Both the position numbers and the translations under genes were made by a program. Positions 1,651-10,436 of a stretch of 47,128 bases of DNA are shown here, one piece after another. The stretch covers positions 1 through 47,128 of IMG/VR virus record IMGVR_UViG_3300042923_001800; one strand, given 5' to 3'. The notes under the pieces are model-generated. The model did no database searches. It saw only the letters and a list, made by a program, of their open reading frames with translations, and had not been told where the DNA came from. Origin of the DNA: a virus. Its lineage: Duplodnaviria; Caudoviricetes. The number at the start of each line of letters is the position of its first letter. The first letter of the stretch is position 1.

Positions 1651-1742
1651 AAAAAAAATAAAAAACCCACTCCAAGCAATTAGCTTACAATGGGTTTCAT
1701 GAACCTCTAATTTATCTAAAAATGGGGATGAGTGGGTCTCTA
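1651..1742 (-). ncRNA. Candidate structured leader/sRNA, copy A (upstream of integrase)
   Basis: Closing stem ACCCACUC/GAGUGGGU, inner AAGC-UAAUU-GCUU hairpin, long U-tract; repeated at 3055-3146. Confidence 0.65.
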
Positions 1743-1747
1743 TATAT

Positions 1748-1776
1748 AGAATATCAAACGTGCGTTTGTGTGTCAA
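1748..1776 (-). promoter_or_regulatory. SigA-type promoter with LexA/SOS-like palindrome in the spacer
   Basis: TTGACA-17bp-TATTCT; CAAAC-N4-GTTTG at 1755-1768. Confidence 0.7.
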
Positions 1777-1857: not shown

Positions 1858-2919
1858 TTATAACATATCATAAATTGAATAAATATAGTGTTCTATTGTT
1901 AATGACTTCCATGTGGTTCTATTGCCTGGATGAAGTACATTATCTTTTTTATTAATAATACCAATGCATCCAGGGCATATCTGCTTGTGATGACTATCTA
2001 TATTACTCCAAAAATTAGAGCTTATAATTGAAGGTGCTATCACTGTTGAGTAGGTTTTAGGGTGCATTGAGGGATGTGCTGTGAAGCCTATATATCTATT
2101 TAAAGTATTAGTGTAAAAGATATTTGTTATATAACCCCTAAATGACTCTGTAAGTGAATCTTTTTTTATTCCAGAAAAATCACCAAATGCATCAAAACCA
2201 AGTTTTTTATAATCGTTCAGAAACGAGTTGTCAAAATCATTAATTACGGAACAGTTTTTAATAGTTGAATTTTTAAAACTATTTGTAATAACACTTCTAA
2301 CTAATACAGTCTTACATTTAGATGCATTTTTTATGGCATTAATTTTCATATAAATATTAAATAAGTCAGCAGTAATATGTTTTTTTTCATCTAAATCTAA
2401 TAGTAATATATCTTCTTTTTTAATCAAATTACTAAGCTCATTAATAACAGAGTCTGAAACATCGTTATATAACCTAAAACAAACACTATTTCCATTAAAG
2501 GTACTTCGTAGCTCTTTCTCCTGAAAAGTTAGTGTTCCACTTATATATTTTTCTCGTGGGTTATAGGTAATAGTAGGAATCAAATTTTTTATACAAGACA
2601 AACTTTTTAGATAGCTAATTCTAGTATTTATACAATTATTTATTGGCTCAAGAAATTCCTTATATTTATTCTCTATTTTCGGTGTATTGAGGTCTATGTA
2701 CATTGGTATATCAATTATAATTGGAAATTTATAATTTGATAGTTCTTTGGGATATACCTCATAGAAAGTTTTTGAAGTTTTTGGAATCCTGCCAGAAGGA
2801 TAAAGTTGAACAATTTCGATTAGTGGCATTATTTTACCTGTAGTAAACACATTTGTAGACGACATGGTCTTTATTGCAGCTATTTCTGATTGCCTATATC
2901 TTAGTATAGGAATATACAT
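1858..2919 (-). CDS. Beta-family (sce7725-like) protein
   Basis: N-terminal MYIPILRYRQSEIAA, PLIEI, FGDF and C-terminal WK....HY motifs typical of this family; 353 aa. Confidence 0.75.
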   Translation of the reverse strand: MYIPILRYRQSEIAAIKTMSSTNVFTTGKIMPLIEIVQLYPSGRIPKTSKTFYEVYPKELSNYKFPIIIDIPMYIDLNTPKIENKYKEFLEPINNCINTRISYLKSLSCIKNLIPTITYNPREKYISGTLTFQEKELRSTFNGNSVCFRLYNDVSDSVINELSNLIKKEDILLLDLDEKKHITADLFNIYMKINAIKNASKCKTVLVRSVITNSFKNSTIKNCSVINDFDNSFLNDYKKLGFDAFGDFSGIKKDSLTESFRGYITNIFYTNTLNRYIGFTAHPSMHPKTYSTVIAPSIISSNFWSNIDSHHKQICPGCIGIINKKDNVLHPGNRTTWKSLTIEHYIYSIYDML

Positions 2920-3054: not shown

Positions 3055-3146
3055 AAAATAAATAAAACCCACCACAAGCAATTAAGCTTATAATGGGTTT
3101 CATGAACCTCAAAAATATAAAAAACGGGGGATGGGTGGGTTTATAT
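3055..3146 (-). ncRNA. Candidate structured leader/sRNA, copy B (upstream of beta-family gene)
   Basis: Closing stem AAACCCACC/GGUGGGUUU, AAGC-UUAAUU-GCUU hairpin, GAGGUUCAUGAAACCCAUU core identical to copy A. Confidence 0.65.
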
Positions 3147-3150
3147 TTAT

Positions 3151-3179
3151 AATATAACAAACATGTGTTTCTGTGTCAA
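3151..3179 (-). promoter_or_regulatory. SigA-type promoter with LexA/SOS-like palindrome in the spacer
   Basis: TTGACA-17bp-TATATT; AAAC-ACAT-GTTT within 3158-3171. Confidence 0.7.
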
Positions 3180-3197
3180 TATGGTATTTATTCTAAA

Positions 3198-3743
3198 TTA
3201 GCATCTAGCACAAAGCCTTGAATAATCAGTTTCAGCAATTTGTTTAGAAATAAAAAGATTAATTATCTGCTTTAAAAATGTAATAAAGTTTGCTGAAATT
3301 ACCTCATTTGAAATATTATAACTATTCTCCTTTACTATATTCTGATTTTTTAAAAATCCTCTTTCGTAAGCGGGCTTAAAGGTTGGATCTGAAAATATAT
3401 TTAGTACAATATAGTCAAAATGCTTAAAGCAAATTTTTATATAAATATAAAATATGGAAATTAATAACCCCTTAGAACTTAATAAATGTTTCTTTTTAAG
3501 TTTATATTTCTTAGAATTTAATCTTTTTGATTTTAAGTATTTATCAATCAACTTTTCTCTTTGCATTGTTGCCCTAAAAGGTACTATTAAGGGTATTATA
3601 AGAATAGCAAAATATAAAATAACTGCAGATAATAAATTAAATTTACATTTTCCTTCTTGATTAACAGCAATAATTAGTCCAATAAATGAAAATACAAAAA
3701 ATACAATTACACATGCGCTAAGCGCAATTTTCAAATCAATCAA
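3198..3743 (-). CDS. Membrane protein, unknown function (lysogeny-region accessory)
   Basis: 181 aa ORF with SD AGGAGGTG and 2-3 hydrophobic segments. Confidence 0.75.
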   Translation of the reverse strand: MIDLKIALSACVIVFFVFSFIGLIIAVNQEGKCKFNLLSAVILYFAILIIPLIVPFRATMQREKLIDKYLKSKRLNSKKYKLKKKHLLSSKGLLISIFYIYIKICFKHFDYIVLNIFSDPTFKPAYERGFLKNQNIVKENSYNISNEVISANFITFLKQIINLFISKQIAETDYSRLCARC

Positions 3744-4259: not shown

Positions 4260-4460
4260 TACAAAAACCTCTTTTCTCTATGAATAACTATTATCATAAA
4301 CTTTTTATAAATAAAGGGTTGGTGCTCTGTGGCTCTCAACGTATGGTCGTACGTATTTTTATTTTTAATATAGTTGCTATATTTCGACATATAAAATCTA
4401 ATTACGACAAATTACATTATTTCAAGTATTTTACTCAAAACTGTTTAAAAAATACTCAAA

Positions 4461-4886
4461 TTAATATAATTTGAGTTGAAGTAATTCTTTAGGCATATTA
4501 ATATCAGCTGCTATTTGCTCCATAGTATAGTACTCAGGATAGTTATGTATAAATTCATCTTGAATAAGCAATTCAGAAGAGAACTTATTTGCTTCGATTT
4601 CGAATTTATTTTTCACGTAAAATGTATTTCTCTCAATAAATAATATATTTAATTTTGCATGGAGAACAGCATGTCCTAATTCATGGCTACATACAATCAC
4701 TTTTTCAAAATCATCTAAATTACTATTGATATGAATGATTTTGTTTTTAGGGCAAGATTGATAGAAGCCTCTTATATTGCCTAATGGTTCATAAATTATT
4801 TTTATTTTTAAACAATCAGCGAGTTCAATAGGGTTGTTTGTGCCATATTTTTTTATAAGCTTTTTTACTATCTTCTTTATATCCAA
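4461..4886 (-). CDS. immA: ImmA/IrrE-family metallopeptidase (anti-repressor protease)
   Basis: HELGH zinc motif, E.EANKF, adjacent to XRE repressor. Confidence 0.93.
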   Translation of the reverse strand: MDIKKIVKKLIKKYGTNNPIELADCLKIKIIYEPLGNIRGFYQSCPKNKIIHINSNLDDFEKVIVCSHELGHAVLHAKLNILFIERNTFYVKNKFEIEANKFSSELLIQDEFIHNYPEYYTMEQIAADINMPKELLQLKLY

Positions 4887-4929
4887 GATATCATCTCCCC
4901 AATTACTCGACCATTAACCCATGATTAAC

Positions 4930-5442
4930 TTATTCTTTATCTTTTCTATATTTTTTAGGAGTAAATCTCTTCTTATTAGAAATTTTAGCAATCTCAAGAC
5001 CATTTTTTATTGCTTGTTTCAAAAGAAGTAAATCATTCTCATCTAAAATTTCTCCATTAAGCATAAGGCCTTCTTGCTCTTCAATATAATCCATAGTTTG
5101 ATTTAAGAGTTTTTCAACATCTTTTTCATCTTTCCTGGTAAAAGAAGGGTGAGCTGATTTAGCTTCCATCATAAGAATATTACCATTATTATCTTTAAAT
5201 AAAATGTCTGGTCTACTTATGTGTCCAGCTGCAGACATTAATTTTTCATAAGTAACGTTTGTATCTTCGGTACTATAAGCTAGTTTTTTGATGATTTCTG
5301 GAGTAGGAGCATTGTCTATACTCTTGTTAATATATCCAGAAACATATGCTCTGCTTACACCGCTATTGTCAGAGTATTGTTTATTATTTCTACTTCCACG
5401 TGCCTTAATTAGTAATAGGCTAAATTTATCTTTATCAAACAT
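4930..5442 (-). CDS. XRE-family HTH prophage repressor (ImmR/CI-like)
   Basis: HTH GVSRAYVS...PTPEIIKKLA; C-terminal GLMLNGE...TPKKYRK tail typical of clostridial repressors; start moved to ATG at 5442 on SD GGAG. Confidence 0.88.
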   Translation of the reverse strand: MFDKDKFSLLLIKARGSRNNKQYSDNSGVSRAYVSGYINKSIDNAPTPEIIKKLAYSTEDTNVTYEKLMSAAGHISRPDILFKDNNGNILMMEAKSAHPSFTRKDEKDVEKLLNQTMDYIEEQEGLMLNGEILDENDLLLLKQAIKNGLEIAKISNKKRFTPKKYRKDKE

Positions 5443-5475
5443 AATCATCACTCCTACAATTATTGTAAAGTTAAG

Positions 5476-5585
5476 CGTCAAAATTTTCAACATGATGGAA
5501 GTGTAAAATTTTTTATCTTTTAGTGTATAATATATTGACACAGCAATATAATAGTAGTATATTTAAAGTGTCAAATAAATTGACG
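5476..5585. promoter_or_regulatory. Divergent genetic switch: operators YGTCAA-N5-TTGACR and rightward promoter
   Basis: 17-bp palindromes at 5569-5585 (best), 5524-5540 and 5476-5492; TTGACA(5535)-17-TATATT(5558). Confidence 0.7.
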
Positions 5586-5600
5586 GATGGAGGTGAGTAA

Positions 5601-5852
5601 ATGAAACCCAATATTATAAAGATTGAAGAGTTGCTTGAAAAGCATTTTGATGGAAATAAAGCTGCATTTGCAAAAGCAATTGGGGTAGAAAGGTCACAAA
5701 TATCAGCCTTGGTAAATCATGGTGGTCGAGTAGGTGCGAAGTTCTACGGAGGATTAATAGCCTATTGTGATAACCATGGCTTGAATTTTAGAGACTATAT
5801 TTTTTTACCTCGATACGTCAAAATATTAGACAGAAAAATATCTGTATCTTAA
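5601..5852 (+). CDS. Cro-like HTH regulator
   Basis: 83 aa, NKAAFAKAIGVERSQIS HTH, divergent from repressor. Confidence 0.85.
   Translation: MKPNIIKIEELLEKHFDGNKAAFAKAIGVERSQISALVNHGGRVGAKFYGGLIAYCDNHGLNFRDYIFLPRYVKILDRKISVS
5816..5832. promoter_or_regulatory. Auxiliary operator in 3' end of cro
   Basis: CGTCAA-AATAT-TAGACA, one mismatch to the operator consensus. Confidence 0.5.
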
Positions 5853-5902
5853 TCTAGTCTACCCAGCACTTTGAAAATTTAATAGAAACGGAGGATGGAA
5901 AA

Positions 5903-6607
5903 GTGGGGAACGATTTACAGGTTATTGATGAAAGACAATTATTAAGCAGAAACTTCCGAATGTATGCTTCTTATGAAAATCCACTGTTCTTAGCTAAGGA
6001 TGTCGCTGAGTGGATTGAGCATAGCAATTCAACTGTTATGTTGCAAAACGTAGATGACTCTGAAAAGGTACTAAAGAATGTTTATACCCTTGGAGGAAGT
6101 CAAGAAACTTGGTTTTTGACAGAGGATGGTCTTTATGAAGTTTTGATGCAGAGTAGAAAACCTATTGCTAAGGAATTCAAGAAACAAATAAAGCAAATTC
6201 TTAAAGATATTAGAAAGCATGGAATGTATGCCAAGGAAGAGCTGCTGGATAATCCAGACTTGCTGTTTGATGTACTAATTAAATATAGAGGGGAACGAAA
6301 GAAGAGATTAGAGCTTGAGCAGACCAATACAATTCTAATGCACGTAAACAAGACATATACGGCTACAGAAATTGCAAAAGAATTGGGAATACCTTCTGCA
6401 ATAGCACTCAATAGAAAGCTTTATGATATGAAAATTCAGTTCAAACAAAATGATACATATGTCCTTTATTCAAAGTATGCGGATAAGGGATATGTGGAAA
6501 TAAAGCAAGAAGTAATGGATAACGGGAAAGTAATATACCACAGGAGATGGACTCAGTTAGGAAGAGAGTTTCTTCTGAAATTGTTCAGTAGCCAAGAGGC
6601 TTGTTAA
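5903..6607 (+). CDS. Phage antirepressor (BRO-N plus KilAC-like C-terminus)
   Basis: PLFLAKDVAEWI, TEDGLYEVLMQSRKPIAKEFK, IRKHGMY, WTQLGREF. Confidence 0.92.
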   Translation: MGNDLQVIDERQLLSRNFRMYASYENPLFLAKDVAEWIEHSNSTVMLQNVDDSEKVLKNVYTLGGSQETWFLTEDGLYEVLMQSRKPIAKEFKKQIKQILKDIRKHGMYAKEELLDNPDLLFDVLIKYRGERKKRLELEQTNTILMHVNKTYTATEIAKELGIPSAIALNRKLYDMKIQFKQNDTYVLYSKYADKGYVEIKQEVMDNGKVIYHRRWTQLGREFLLKLFSSQEAC

Positions 6608-6678
6608 TAAAACAAAAACTTAAAATTAAATAGGGTTTCGTGAACGTGGGATGAGGGCACTAAACAGGAGGGTTTCTA

Positions 6679-6834
6679 ATGTTTGATATGAATGAGTTTA
6701 GATGTCCAGAATGTAATAAGTTAATTTTTAAATACAGATTAAAAGGGTCGTTGGTGTTAGAGGTTAAGTGCACTAGGTGCAATAAAATTGCTTCGTTGGC
6801 AATAGGAAGGATGGCGAGCTCATGGGAAAGTTAG
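6679..6834 (+). CDS. Com-family zinc-ribbon regulator (51 aa, not in ORF track)
   Basis: EFRCPECNKLIFK...EVKCTRC, matching the Mu Com pattern RCxxCnKLL...IKCxRC; SD AGGAGG. Confidence 0.8.
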   Translation: MFDMNEFRCPECNKLIFKYRLKGSLVLEVKCTRCNKIASLAIGRMASSWES

Positions 6835-6977
6835 TGGCTATAGAGAAGCAACAAATGAAGTCTGGAAGATTTGAATGTACTGTTACTAAAGAGTTTTATG
6901 CAGGGGAAGAGGAAAGAGCTGCACAGGTTAAGGCTTTAAAGTACATAAAATCGTTGGAATACAGAAAGGAGGCTTAA
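6822..6977 (+). CDS. Small hypothetical protein (51 aa)
   Basis: MGKLVAIEKQQ...RKEA; SD AGGA; overlaps the Com-like gene end. Confidence 0.6.
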   Translation: MGKLVAIEKQQMKSGRFECTVTKEFYAGEEERAAQVKALKYIKSLEYRKEA

Positions 6978-7074
6978 AAAGCCTTATAAAAATTTTTACT
7001 CAACCTAAAATGCATAGACTGCTCAATATATTCTATGCAAAAGAAAAAAGAATAGAACCGGGGGATGAGAAAAA

Positions 7075-8103: not shown

Positions 8104-8872
8104 AGATAATTACTATTCACCTGAAGCTGATAGAGTTTATATGTCAGTTAGCCAGTTTAAAAGCTTCCGTAAATGTGAAGCTAAAGCAAAAGCTAAGCTT
8201 GATGGCACATGGCAGGAACCTAAAAATGAAGCTTTCTTAATTGGATCATATGTGCATGCCTGGTCAGAAGGAACACTCGCAGAATTTAAAAAAGAACATC
8301 CAGAGCTCTATAAAAAATCTGATGGTGCCTTAATGCAAAAGTTTGATATAGCTGAAAAGATGATAGCGGCTCTTAAGGATGATGAATTTGTAACTATGGT
8401 CCGAGAGGGTCAAAAGGAAGTAATAATGACAGCTGAGCTCTTTGGTGTAGCTTTTAAGTGCATGATAGATATTTATAATCTAGACAGTGAGGTTATCGTG
8501 GACCTTAAGACAACAAGAGAGATACATAAAAAGTACTGGAATGATGATAAGAGAAAATTTGAAAACTTCATAGAGTGTTATGACTATCTATTACAGATGG
8601 CTGTATATGCGGAGATTGATAGGATAAACAGAGGTTCAAATAAATACTTCTTACCCCATATAGTTGCTGTTAGCAAAGAAGATGTACCTGACAAAGCTGT
8701 AATATTCCTTGGAACTGATTATATAGCAGATAAGCTGCTTGAATTAGAATTAGGGATAGGTAGAGTAGTTAGAGTAAAACAAGGCTTAGAAGAGCCAATA
8801 CGTTGCGAGAAATGCGATTACTGTAAGGCAACAAAGAAAATAACTGGTGTAGTACATTACACAGATTTATAA
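8090..8872 (+). CDS. PD-(D/E)XK exonuclease (RecE/DUF3799-like)
   Basis: MSVSQFKSF, KCMID...IVDLKTT, YLLQMAVY, CEKCDYC; start moved to ATG 8090. Confidence 0.88.
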   Translation: MQLTKDNYYSPEADRVYMSVSQFKSFRKCEAKAKAKLDGTWQEPKNEAFLIGSYVHAWSEGTLAEFKKEHPELYKKSDGALMQKFDIAEKMIAALKDDEFVTMVREGQKEVIMTAELFGVAFKCMIDIYNLDSEVIVDLKTTREIHKKYWNDDKRKFENFIECYDYLLQMAVYAEIDRINRGSNKYFLPHIVAVSKEDVPDKAVIFLGTDYIADKLLELELGIGRVVRVKQGLEEPIRCEKCDYCKATKKITGVVHYTDL

Positions 8873-9573: not shown

Positions 9574-9590
9574 ATAAAAAGTAAAAGATA

Positions 9591-9728
9591 CCCCTCCATA
9601 TTGTGGACCCCTCCACCACAAGGACACTAACTATATATATAAAGATAAATTATATATAAATATATATATTAATTATAAATATTGTTCCCCTCCATATTGT
9701 GGAGGGGGTGCTAATCAATATGGAGGGG
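9591..9728. repeat. Probable replication origin: iterons flanking an AT-rich unwinding element
   Basis: CCCCTCCATATTGTGGA at 9591 and 9687, partial at 9608, inverted copy 9716-9728; nearly pure A/T at 9632-9683. Confidence 0.75.
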
Positions 9729-9752
9729 TATATAAAAAGAGGTGATAAATAA

Positions 9753-10436
9753 TTGGATAAGGTCATAGATAAAACCTCAGGCTTTCATTTCACGATAGTA
9801 GATAATTACATTCTTGAAGGCGCTGAACTAAGTGATAGTGAACAAATAGTTTATATACACCTTAAAAAATATGCTTCAAGCAGCAATTCATGTTTTCCTG
9901 GAGTTCCGACACTAGCCAACAAACTAAAGAGGAGTAAGAACTATGTAAGAGATGTGCTTAAGACCTTAGAAGATAAAGGCTATATTAAAATTGATTATAG
10001 GTACGGTCAAAGCAATGAATATACTTTGCTTCCTTATCCTGAATATGTGACAGAACAGGAGACAAAAGATGAGATAACTGGGGTAGTAAATCTAGGAATA
10101 AGTGATGTGCTTAAATGCTATCAAAATAATATAAATCCAACTTACGGATCTATGGAAAGAGATAAACTTGTAAAATGGTTTGAAGCATTTGAAGAGAATG
10201 CGGAAATTCTCATTAAATCAATTGAAATAGCAGTAGATCAAGGAGCTAGGAAGATTAAATTTATTGAAACGATACTTATTGATTGGAAACAGAATGGAAT
10301 AATTACGGTAGAACAAGCTGAAGCGTATACAAGACTTAGAGAAGAGAAGAAGAGAGGTGGCAAAAGTGGAAGTACTGGCGAGAATACTGGAGCAAGCACG
10401 TCAGAACTCTATGACTTCAGCAAATACGGAGGCTAA
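9753..10436 (+). CDS. Replication initiator (N-terminal winged HTH plus DnaD domain)
   Basis: FTIVDN...CFPGVPTLA...LEDKGYI; FIETILIDWKQNGIITVEQ. Confidence 0.9.
   Translation: MDKVIDKTSGFHFTIVDNYILEGAELSDSEQIVYIHLKKYASSSNSCFPGVPTLANKLKRSKNYVRDVLKTLEDKGYIKIDYRYGQSNEYTLLPYPEYVTEQETKDEITGVVNLGISDVLKCYQNNINPTYGSMERDKLVKWFEAFEENAEILIKSIEIAVDQGARKIKFIETILIDWKQNGIITVEQAEAYTRLREEKKRGGKSGSTGENTGASTSELYDFSKYGG

Follow-up and report, generated by a model that had tools for sequence, protein, structure and literature searches.

A Com-type RNA motif at a predicted prophage integrase terminator and its antisense complement in the early lytic mRNA

The leader of the integrase gene in a Clostridium-type prophage and the early lytic mRNA transcribed from the opposite strand carry complementary segments, and the core of this complementarity lies within a relaxed match to the RNA motif recognized by the Com protein of phage Mu. 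The element is real and conserved, and it combines Mu Com-type RNA recognition with antisense pairing, applied to prophage excision. The window analyzed here is a 47-kb provirus record (47,128 nt) that encodes a serine integrase, cargo genes, an ImmA/repressor pair, and a rightward early operon in the order cro, antirepressor, Com-like gene (com), and recombination genes. As read from the sequence, a promoter with a LexA-type box, a leader, a terminator, and the integrase gene follow one another in this order, and the complement of the leader is situated in the early lytic operon upstream of com (Table 1). Our preferred reading, to which we assign a probability of roughly 0.45, is that the leader is a Com-opened, SOS-gated integrase attenuator whose terminated RNA likely pairs with the com-xis mRNA and dampens it.

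Table 1. Coordinates of the features discussed; positions refer to the window unless a locus is named
Feature	Position	Strand	Remarks
Large serine integrase, 542 aa	1..1629	-	Pfam Resolvase, Recombinase, Zn_ribbon_recom; directly downstream of leader A
Leader RNA A, about 85-90 nt	1652..1741	-	Start inferred from promoter
Predicted intrinsic terminator, leader A	1652..1698	-	Folding
Relaxed Com box GAGGUUC-AU-GAAACCC	1692..1707	-	3' half is terminator 5' arm; complement of 6633-6645
C-rich segment, complement of 6648-6655	1725..1732	-	Window-specific; replaces relatives' second Com hairpin
5' segment of RNA A	1734..1742	-	Com half-site; 3'-arm partner; complement of 6670-6678
Promoter A, TTGACA-17-TATTCT, extended -10	1748..1776	-	LexA-type box 1756-1767
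Beta-protein gene	1858..2919	-	Pfam PF14350, E 1e-14, 54.8 bits; downstream of leader B
Leader RNA B, second copy	3055..3144	-	Com box 3095-3110; terminator form dominates
Promoter B, TTGACA-17-TATATT	3151..3179	-	LexA-type box 3159-3170
Strict Mu-Com motif GAGNNCC-N3-GAGNNCC	4321..4337	-	Just downstream of immA; sole one in window
ImmA-like metallopeptidase and HTH repressor	4461..5448	-	Pfam Peptidase_M78 above cut-off; HTH_3 under cut-off
Early lytic transcript start: rightward promoter through antirepressor	5535..6607	+	Promoter call and domain matches
Cro-like gene	5601-5852	+	First gene of early lytic transcript
Bro-N/KilAC antirepressor	5903-6607	+	Early lytic transcript
Target block 1, conserved 13-nt core	6633..6645	+	Follows A-rich stretch
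Target block 2, 8 nt	6648..6655	+	Within G-rich motif kept before com in relatives
Target block 3, 9 nt	6670..6678	+	Overlaps Shine-Dalgarno 6666-6671; ends at com start codon
Com-like zinc-ribbon protein, 51 aa	6679..6834	+	hhalign, PHROG, Pfam
51-aa ORF overlapping com stop	6822..6977	+	Place of xis-like genes in tyrosine-integrase relatives
Post-immA strict Com box, relatives	L173 3608, L175 3114, L176 2692, L177 2619, L180 2736, L183 1754, L209 2581, L231 2823
Strict Com box over terminator, unrelated com phages	L192 4247, L193 4653, L195 6405, L198 1876, L202 1330, L203 4837

The initial annotation had drawn attention to two leader-like repeats and to a complementary site in front of com, and a pattern search of the window returned all of them at the coordinates it gave. 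The repeats (1652-1797 and 3055-3200) are 73% identical and carry near-consensus, sigma-70-like promoters on the minus strand; leader A leads into the integrase gene and leader B into the beta-protein gene, with a predicted terminator at the end of each. The sequence GGGTTTC[A/G]TGAAC occurs exactly three times in the window (1692, 3095, and 6633), always on the + strand, while GGGATGAG is found at 1725 and 6648 and also at 7062, and GGGTTTC recurs at 6670. The target consists of three collinear blocks of 13, 8, and 9 nt, all complementary to leader RNA A. The third block emerged from two-strand folding: 6670-6678, situated between the Shine-Dalgarno and the AUG of com, is paired there with the RNA A 5' end (+ strand 1734-1742), with one G-U pair more. 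The predicted energies of the blocks were -21.0, -13.9, and -11.5 kcal/mol individually and -40.9 kcal/mol together. Both differences between copy A and the site become G-U pairs in the predicted orientation; in copy B, the 8-nt and the 9-nt block each contain one mismatch.

This complementarity is well above chance, and the site is real. With G-U pairs allowed, 0.027 copies of the 13-nt block are expected per 47 kb on both strands, and the two- and three-block patterns occurred 0 times in 300 Markov simulations. A duplex scan covering 9,418 windows across both strands placed the site first for the two RNAs (-37.2 and -33.8 kcal/mol, against background means of about -14.5 kcal/mol with an sd of 4), after exclusion of the locus of each RNA itself and of the near-palindromic hairpins in the repeats. 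The expectation that the site would rank first genome-wide was therefore borne out for the whole RNAs against non-self windows but not for the 20-nt core alone, for which the site came second, behind a gapped coding-region match at 8485. A non-functional duplication remnant or a chance match is a highly improbable explanation of the site: its blocks are indeed collinear with the repeat, as they would be in a decayed copy, and G-rich, Shine-Dalgarno-like words do recur (GGGATG 12 times on the + strand), but 7 of 8 phages that otherwise cannot be aligned keep the core, its place in the operon shifts, and phages without the leader are also without it. A further predicted duplex, at 7045-7070, joins the ribosome site of a DUF6906 gene to the 5' parts of RNA A (-18.6 kcal/mol) and RNA B (-21.3 kcal/mol) and is possibly a second target or possibly a Shine-Dalgarno coincidence. 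A faint likeness links the start of com (6670-6710) to the leader promoter region, read on the same strand, and the leader could derive from a copy of the com 5' region. A strong AT-rich hairpin with repeats lies at 9585-9734, upstream of the replication initiator gene, where the Rfam match was at chance level.

Comparison with Mu Com identified the com product as a CCCC zinc-ribbon homologue (hhalign 97.1%, E 7e-11, 34 columns). It matched PHROG 6417 and 13819 (E 2e-6 and 3e-5; translational regulator) and reached 18.6 bits with Pfam PF10122, under the 22.9 cut-off. The predicted structure was all-beta (pLDDT 82), fold and PDB searches with it returned generic zinc ribbons alone, none of them significant, and its closest named homologue was from Clostridium swellfunianum (85%). 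According to the Mu Com study (PMC6483171), the selected motif is GAGNNCC-N2-3-GAGNNCC, binding is weaker with the motif in a duplex, and a loop-only motif is bound weakly. A strict copy follows immA in 9/10 phages examined, compared with a shuffle expectation of 0.00. This post-immA box is near-invariant and stands before variable cargo genes; its predicted pairing with the next ribosome site, seen in some loci and mixed overall, hints at Mu-like activation of those genes. The strict motif was present in 17/36 com loci and 2/99 control phage loci, or, with near-identical loci grouped, in 15/27 com groups and 1/37 controls, the two sets differing in G+C.

Within the leaders, where the strict form is absent, the core is a relaxed Com copy, GAGGUUC-N2-3-GAAACCC, the second half of which is the 5' arm of the terminator; the relaxed motif GARNNYC-N2-4-GARNNCC, defined after the leader boxes had been seen, fits the core in 8/9 leaders, and the ninth needs one further change. 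A second Com copy is present in 7/7 relatives, with a variable loop, a changed stem (L178), or swapped halves (L209). The swapped order of the heptamers in the second hairpin of L209 (1545-1562) is as expected for a repeat-based motif. Strict Com boxes also overlap a terminator arm in 6/9 other com-phage groups examined, and a clean complement in the same locus was found in 0/9 of these groups with a strict box. The next genes in three such unrelated phages look, by eye, like head or packaging genes. On the + strand near com, neither the strict nor the relaxed motif was detected and the next ORF had no family match; this is not the arrangement expected for mom-like translational activation. 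Because the paired segment falls within a Com-type motif that overlaps the terminator, the Com-like protein is likely an antiterminator, and the mRNA would be unneeded for that job. That the Com-like protein acts on the leader we regard as very probable.

Folding of the leaders is consistent with attenuation. The terminator lies between the promoter and the gene, and the hairpin upstream of it is mutually exclusive with it, as in an attenuator: the consensus from nine sequences has an 8-pair core whose 5' arm is shared with the upstream Com hairpin. These core pairs are invariant and therefore offer no support from covariation. The 3' arm of the leader has two alternative partners, the core, which gives the terminator, or the 5' end; the helix of the 5' end with the 3' arm was formed in 94% of cells, and just one of its pairs varies on both sides. 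In RNA A the two folds are only about 1 kcal/mol apart (-22.9 kcal/mol for the terminator and -21.8 kcal/mol for the 5' end paired to the same 3' arm), while the terminator dominates in RNA B and in several relatives. The terminator fold sequesters part of the core in most leaders (probability 0.55-1.0, 7/8 valid folds); the fold of the 5' end onto the 3' arm frees the core and therefore suits a released small RNA acting in trans, although it could also weaken either model of antitermination. When the Com hairpin is imposed on RNA A, a long helix closed by the 5' end forms beside the U-tract and might itself terminate transcription.

To find relatives, an alignment of Com was used, which gave 36 loci in viral contigs, together with leader patterns independent of com, which added two more phages. 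A profile built from 12 leader sequences and run on 325 loci and the window separated members (at least 78 bits) from all the rest (at most 12 bits). Nine leaders in eight distinct phages, which share <0.5% of 21-mers pairwise, were recovered in this way; they precede four tyrosine and four serine integrases (the integrase of L231 being read by eye), and all eight phages encode Com-like proteins, including two that were found without using com. A loose leader pattern yielded 109 loci, one of which was a new member. A first leader pattern had given seven loci that were judged to be chance matches, and no com was found in 26 bacterial genomes reached through chance loci. Searches for relatives through the integrase (6 loci and 2 annotated records), RecT (13), and the antirepressor (80) returned no leader, and BLASTN of the leaders against phage and plasmid collections found nothing. 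Scans with the bipartite-site pattern returned one locus in viral contigs, not alignable to the window, and 63 loci from unrelated taxa in genome contigs, none of which scored as a leader. In L173, a phage with com and no target, a terminator-like leader remnant with no promoter is seen at 1783-1823.

The target was retained along with the leader in 6/7 relatives, in which an intergenic site on the lytic strand was the core's best partner anywhere in the 11-19 kb locus; L178, which is also without a strict Com box, had just a weak match over the com start codon, ranked fourth. The sites are A-rich upstream (47-67% A in 30 nt) and located 5' of com, directly before it in L175, L180, L209, and L231. 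The fixed link to com proposed in the initial annotation did not hold throughout: in L176 and L177 (2/7 relatives), the site stands ahead of the gene that follows cro, some 1.4 kb before com. Nor is the target bipartite as a defining feature, as conservation is confined to the 13-nt block; the 8-nt block is seen in the window alone, and 7/7 relatives have the second hairpin in its place. In the whole records of L176, L177, L209, and L231, the core pattern occurs exactly twice and on the same strand (4/4 whose leader fits it), and it occurs 0 times in L173 and L183, which have com and no leader, and in L070, two of these three records being <90% complete. The L180 record has four further matches with one mismatch, compared with two for a control pattern. 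A G-rich motif (GGG, ATG, GGGC; window 6646-6665) stays before com even where the target has moved; no conserved partner for it was found among the relatives, and its ATG was rejected as the start of an upstream ORF because frame and length vary.

Leader and target have kept their complementarity, and its orientation is the one needed for RNA-RNA pairing, with the same strand used in the relatives. The core is identical in 4/7 relatives, and 5/7 leader-target differences across the eight phages are G-U-compatible. A one-base deletion is common to the leader and the site of the window, while the L180 leader has the deletion and its site does not. The leader-target covariation looked for in relatives was not significant (permutation p of 0.063 for cognate versus shuffled pairs with L178 and 0.29 without it); therefore, the evidence is one of conservation and co-occurrence, not of demonstrated covariation. 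Architecture, motif, and co-occurrence are established on sequence grounds, and real RNA-RNA pairing between the leader and the lytic mRNA is strongly favored.

The lack of significant covariation is one of the points that would fit an alternative without any RNA-RNA pairing, in which the site is a near-palindromic DNA protein-binding site or a Com half-site on a leftward transcript. The core does hold a palindrome (TTC-N2/3-GAA), and the minus strand matches a Com box in its loop and 3' half, a loop-only motif having bound Com weakly in PMC6483171. However, the two halves of the palindrome are 2 nt apart in some sites and 3 nt in others, the minus strand has no first Com heptamer at 8/8 sites, no leftward promoter-like site was found within 400 nt in 6/8 phages, and the two extra blocks of the window are collinear and G-U-compatible. 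The orientation is identical in every case, which also speaks against an orientation-independent DNA site. We consider this alternative unlikely.

A LexA-type box lies between the -35 and -10 elements in 9/9 leaders, the GTTY half of which was part of the later search patterns; the boxes start with GAAC in two leaders, AAAC in six, and AAAT in one. The Clostridium LexA operator consensus is GAAC-N4-GTTT/C (PMC4234289), and the AAAC start in 6/9 boxes, unlike the published GAAC, counts against the LexA reading. Within the 47-kb window, the strict pattern for the box was found solely at the two leader promoters. We infer LexA/SOS control of these promoters. Given the box, we predict an RNA that appears upon DNA damage and is not constant in lysogens, which argues against a C4/CI-like immunity RNA, the analogy drawn in the initial annotation. 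A LexA-like box also stands directly upstream of the integrase in L065, L066, L069, and L070 (about 9950-9990), whose integrases are 54-56% identical to that of the window and which have no leader; thus, the leader appears to be a detachable module.

In the preferred reading, DNA damage would turn the leader promoter on and, without Com, the transcript would stop as an ~85 nt RNA that pairs with leaky lytic mRNA through the 13-nt core. In this phage the three paired blocks would cover the com ribosome site, so that Com stays low. After repressor cleavage, the lytic mRNA would exceed the small RNA and Com would accumulate; Com on its hairpin would then block the 5' arm of the terminator, the integrase would be transcribed, and the inhibitory RNA would be removed. 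Such a double-negative loop would couple the integrase to Xis or an equivalent, and leader RNA, mRNA, and Com together would form a switch tying excision to full induction. An HTH_17 excisionase-like (Xis-like) gene follows com in 4/4 tyrosine-integrase phages, and the ORF at 6822-6977 is a candidate directionality factor in the window. It has five homologues with 74-78% local identity, one of which adjoins com in Clostridium swellfunianum as judged by locus tag; an Atlas match (0.75) was uninformative, and family searches gave no match. Com binding, read-through, and pairing in the cell, together with its sign, are what we infer from this arrangement.

Repression is the probable direction of the pairing. 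Three points favor it: antitermination can be explained by Com with no part for the mRNA, the duplex extends over the com ribosome site in 3/8 phages (the window, L175, and L178), and all sites are located upstream of com. In the other five phages, the duplex ends well upstream of any ribosome site, and repression there therefore needs another route, e.g., decay. It is quite improbable that the small RNA instead stabilizes or activates the lytic mRNA, for example by shielding a processed 5' end, so that SOS would feed forward into com and xis. Stabilizing small RNAs are known in Firmicutes, an SOS-induced RNA would more simply be a helper of induction, and the site follows an A-rich stretch, often far from the ribosome site; against this, the pairing covers the com ribosome site or start codon in the same three phages, and folding showed no conserved inhibitory target fold for the RNA to open.

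The second-ranked reading, possible but doubtful, is an RNA-triggered control of the terminator, in which the lytic mRNA would pair with the nascent leader, block the 5' arm of the terminator, and turn the integrase on, alone or with Com. The mRNA segment would then be a natural transcription-activating RNA that opens the integrase terminator by way of the same hairpin read by the Com-like protein, a proposal that we hold only tentatively. The conserved core always contains the GGG that pairs with the CCC of the terminator, the nascent leader binds the site at about -31 kcal/mol, and the site does not keep one position in the lytic operon, as would be the case if it merely had to be transcribed. 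With the three blocks paired, RNA A keeps a remnant hairpin of -6.8 kcal/mol that is set back from the U-tract. Folding fits removal of the terminator by a trans RNA only with all three blocks paired, however: when the core alone is blocked, the 5' end pairs with the 3' arm at -18.9 kcal/mol, and 5/8 phages are without the second block. The core also lies just ~35 nt before the end of the terminator, which would leave a short window for a low-copy mRNA. Finally, Com boxes gate terminators elsewhere without a clean complement nearby, and Com alone therefore appears sufficient. If the mRNA trigger were true, it would form with Com and LexA control a three-input excision gate common to tyrosine- and serine-integrase phages.

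Several known systems resemble parts of this arrangement. Mu Com/mom (PF10122; PMC6483171) shares the small CCCC zinc ribbon and the bipartite motif (strict at 4321-4337 and relaxed in the leaders), but there the box precedes mom in a translation-inhibiting stem, whereas here it overlaps a terminator before the integrase, is on the opposite transcript from com, and is accompanied by a LexA-type promoter and an antisense complement. As to protein-bound hairpins that overlap or exclude the 5' arm of a terminator, the comparison is with BglG/SacY and PyrR-type antiterminators. These are protein-dependent as well; they differ in an unrelated protein and RNA motif, and the present case adds the context of phage excision and an antisense partner. 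The C4 RNA of P1/P7 and the CI RNA of P4 are bipartite antisense RNAs directed against the early lytic/antirepressor transcript, and the likeness is that of a small phage RNA with split complementarity to such a transcript. In contrast to C4 and CI, the leader RNA is predicted to be SOS-induced and is an attenuator product encoded 5 kb away on the other strand, with one conserved block and, in this phage, a target after the antirepressor. Rfam searches gave no relevant match in the window (E up to 1) or in four relative leader loci (E up to 5). T-boxes, pT181-type attenuation, and synthetic STARs share a trans RNA complementary to a terminator arm; T-boxes read tRNA, the pT181 RNA promotes termination, and STARs are engineered, whereas the trans RNA here would be a segment of mRNA. 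Searches of the open-access literature brought up neither a description of termination control by Com nor one of an integrase leader with an antisense partner.

To our knowledge, the timing of integrase relative to Xis during the induction of Firmicute prophages is poorly known. The module is a small, testable circuit comprising an 85-nt RNA, a 51-aa protein, and a 13-nt site, and it is found with both integrase classes. It points to a probable function for the widespread, uncharacterized Com-like gene and would extend the role of Com from translational activation to terminator control, with an added antisense layer that was not found in the other Com-terminator phages examined.
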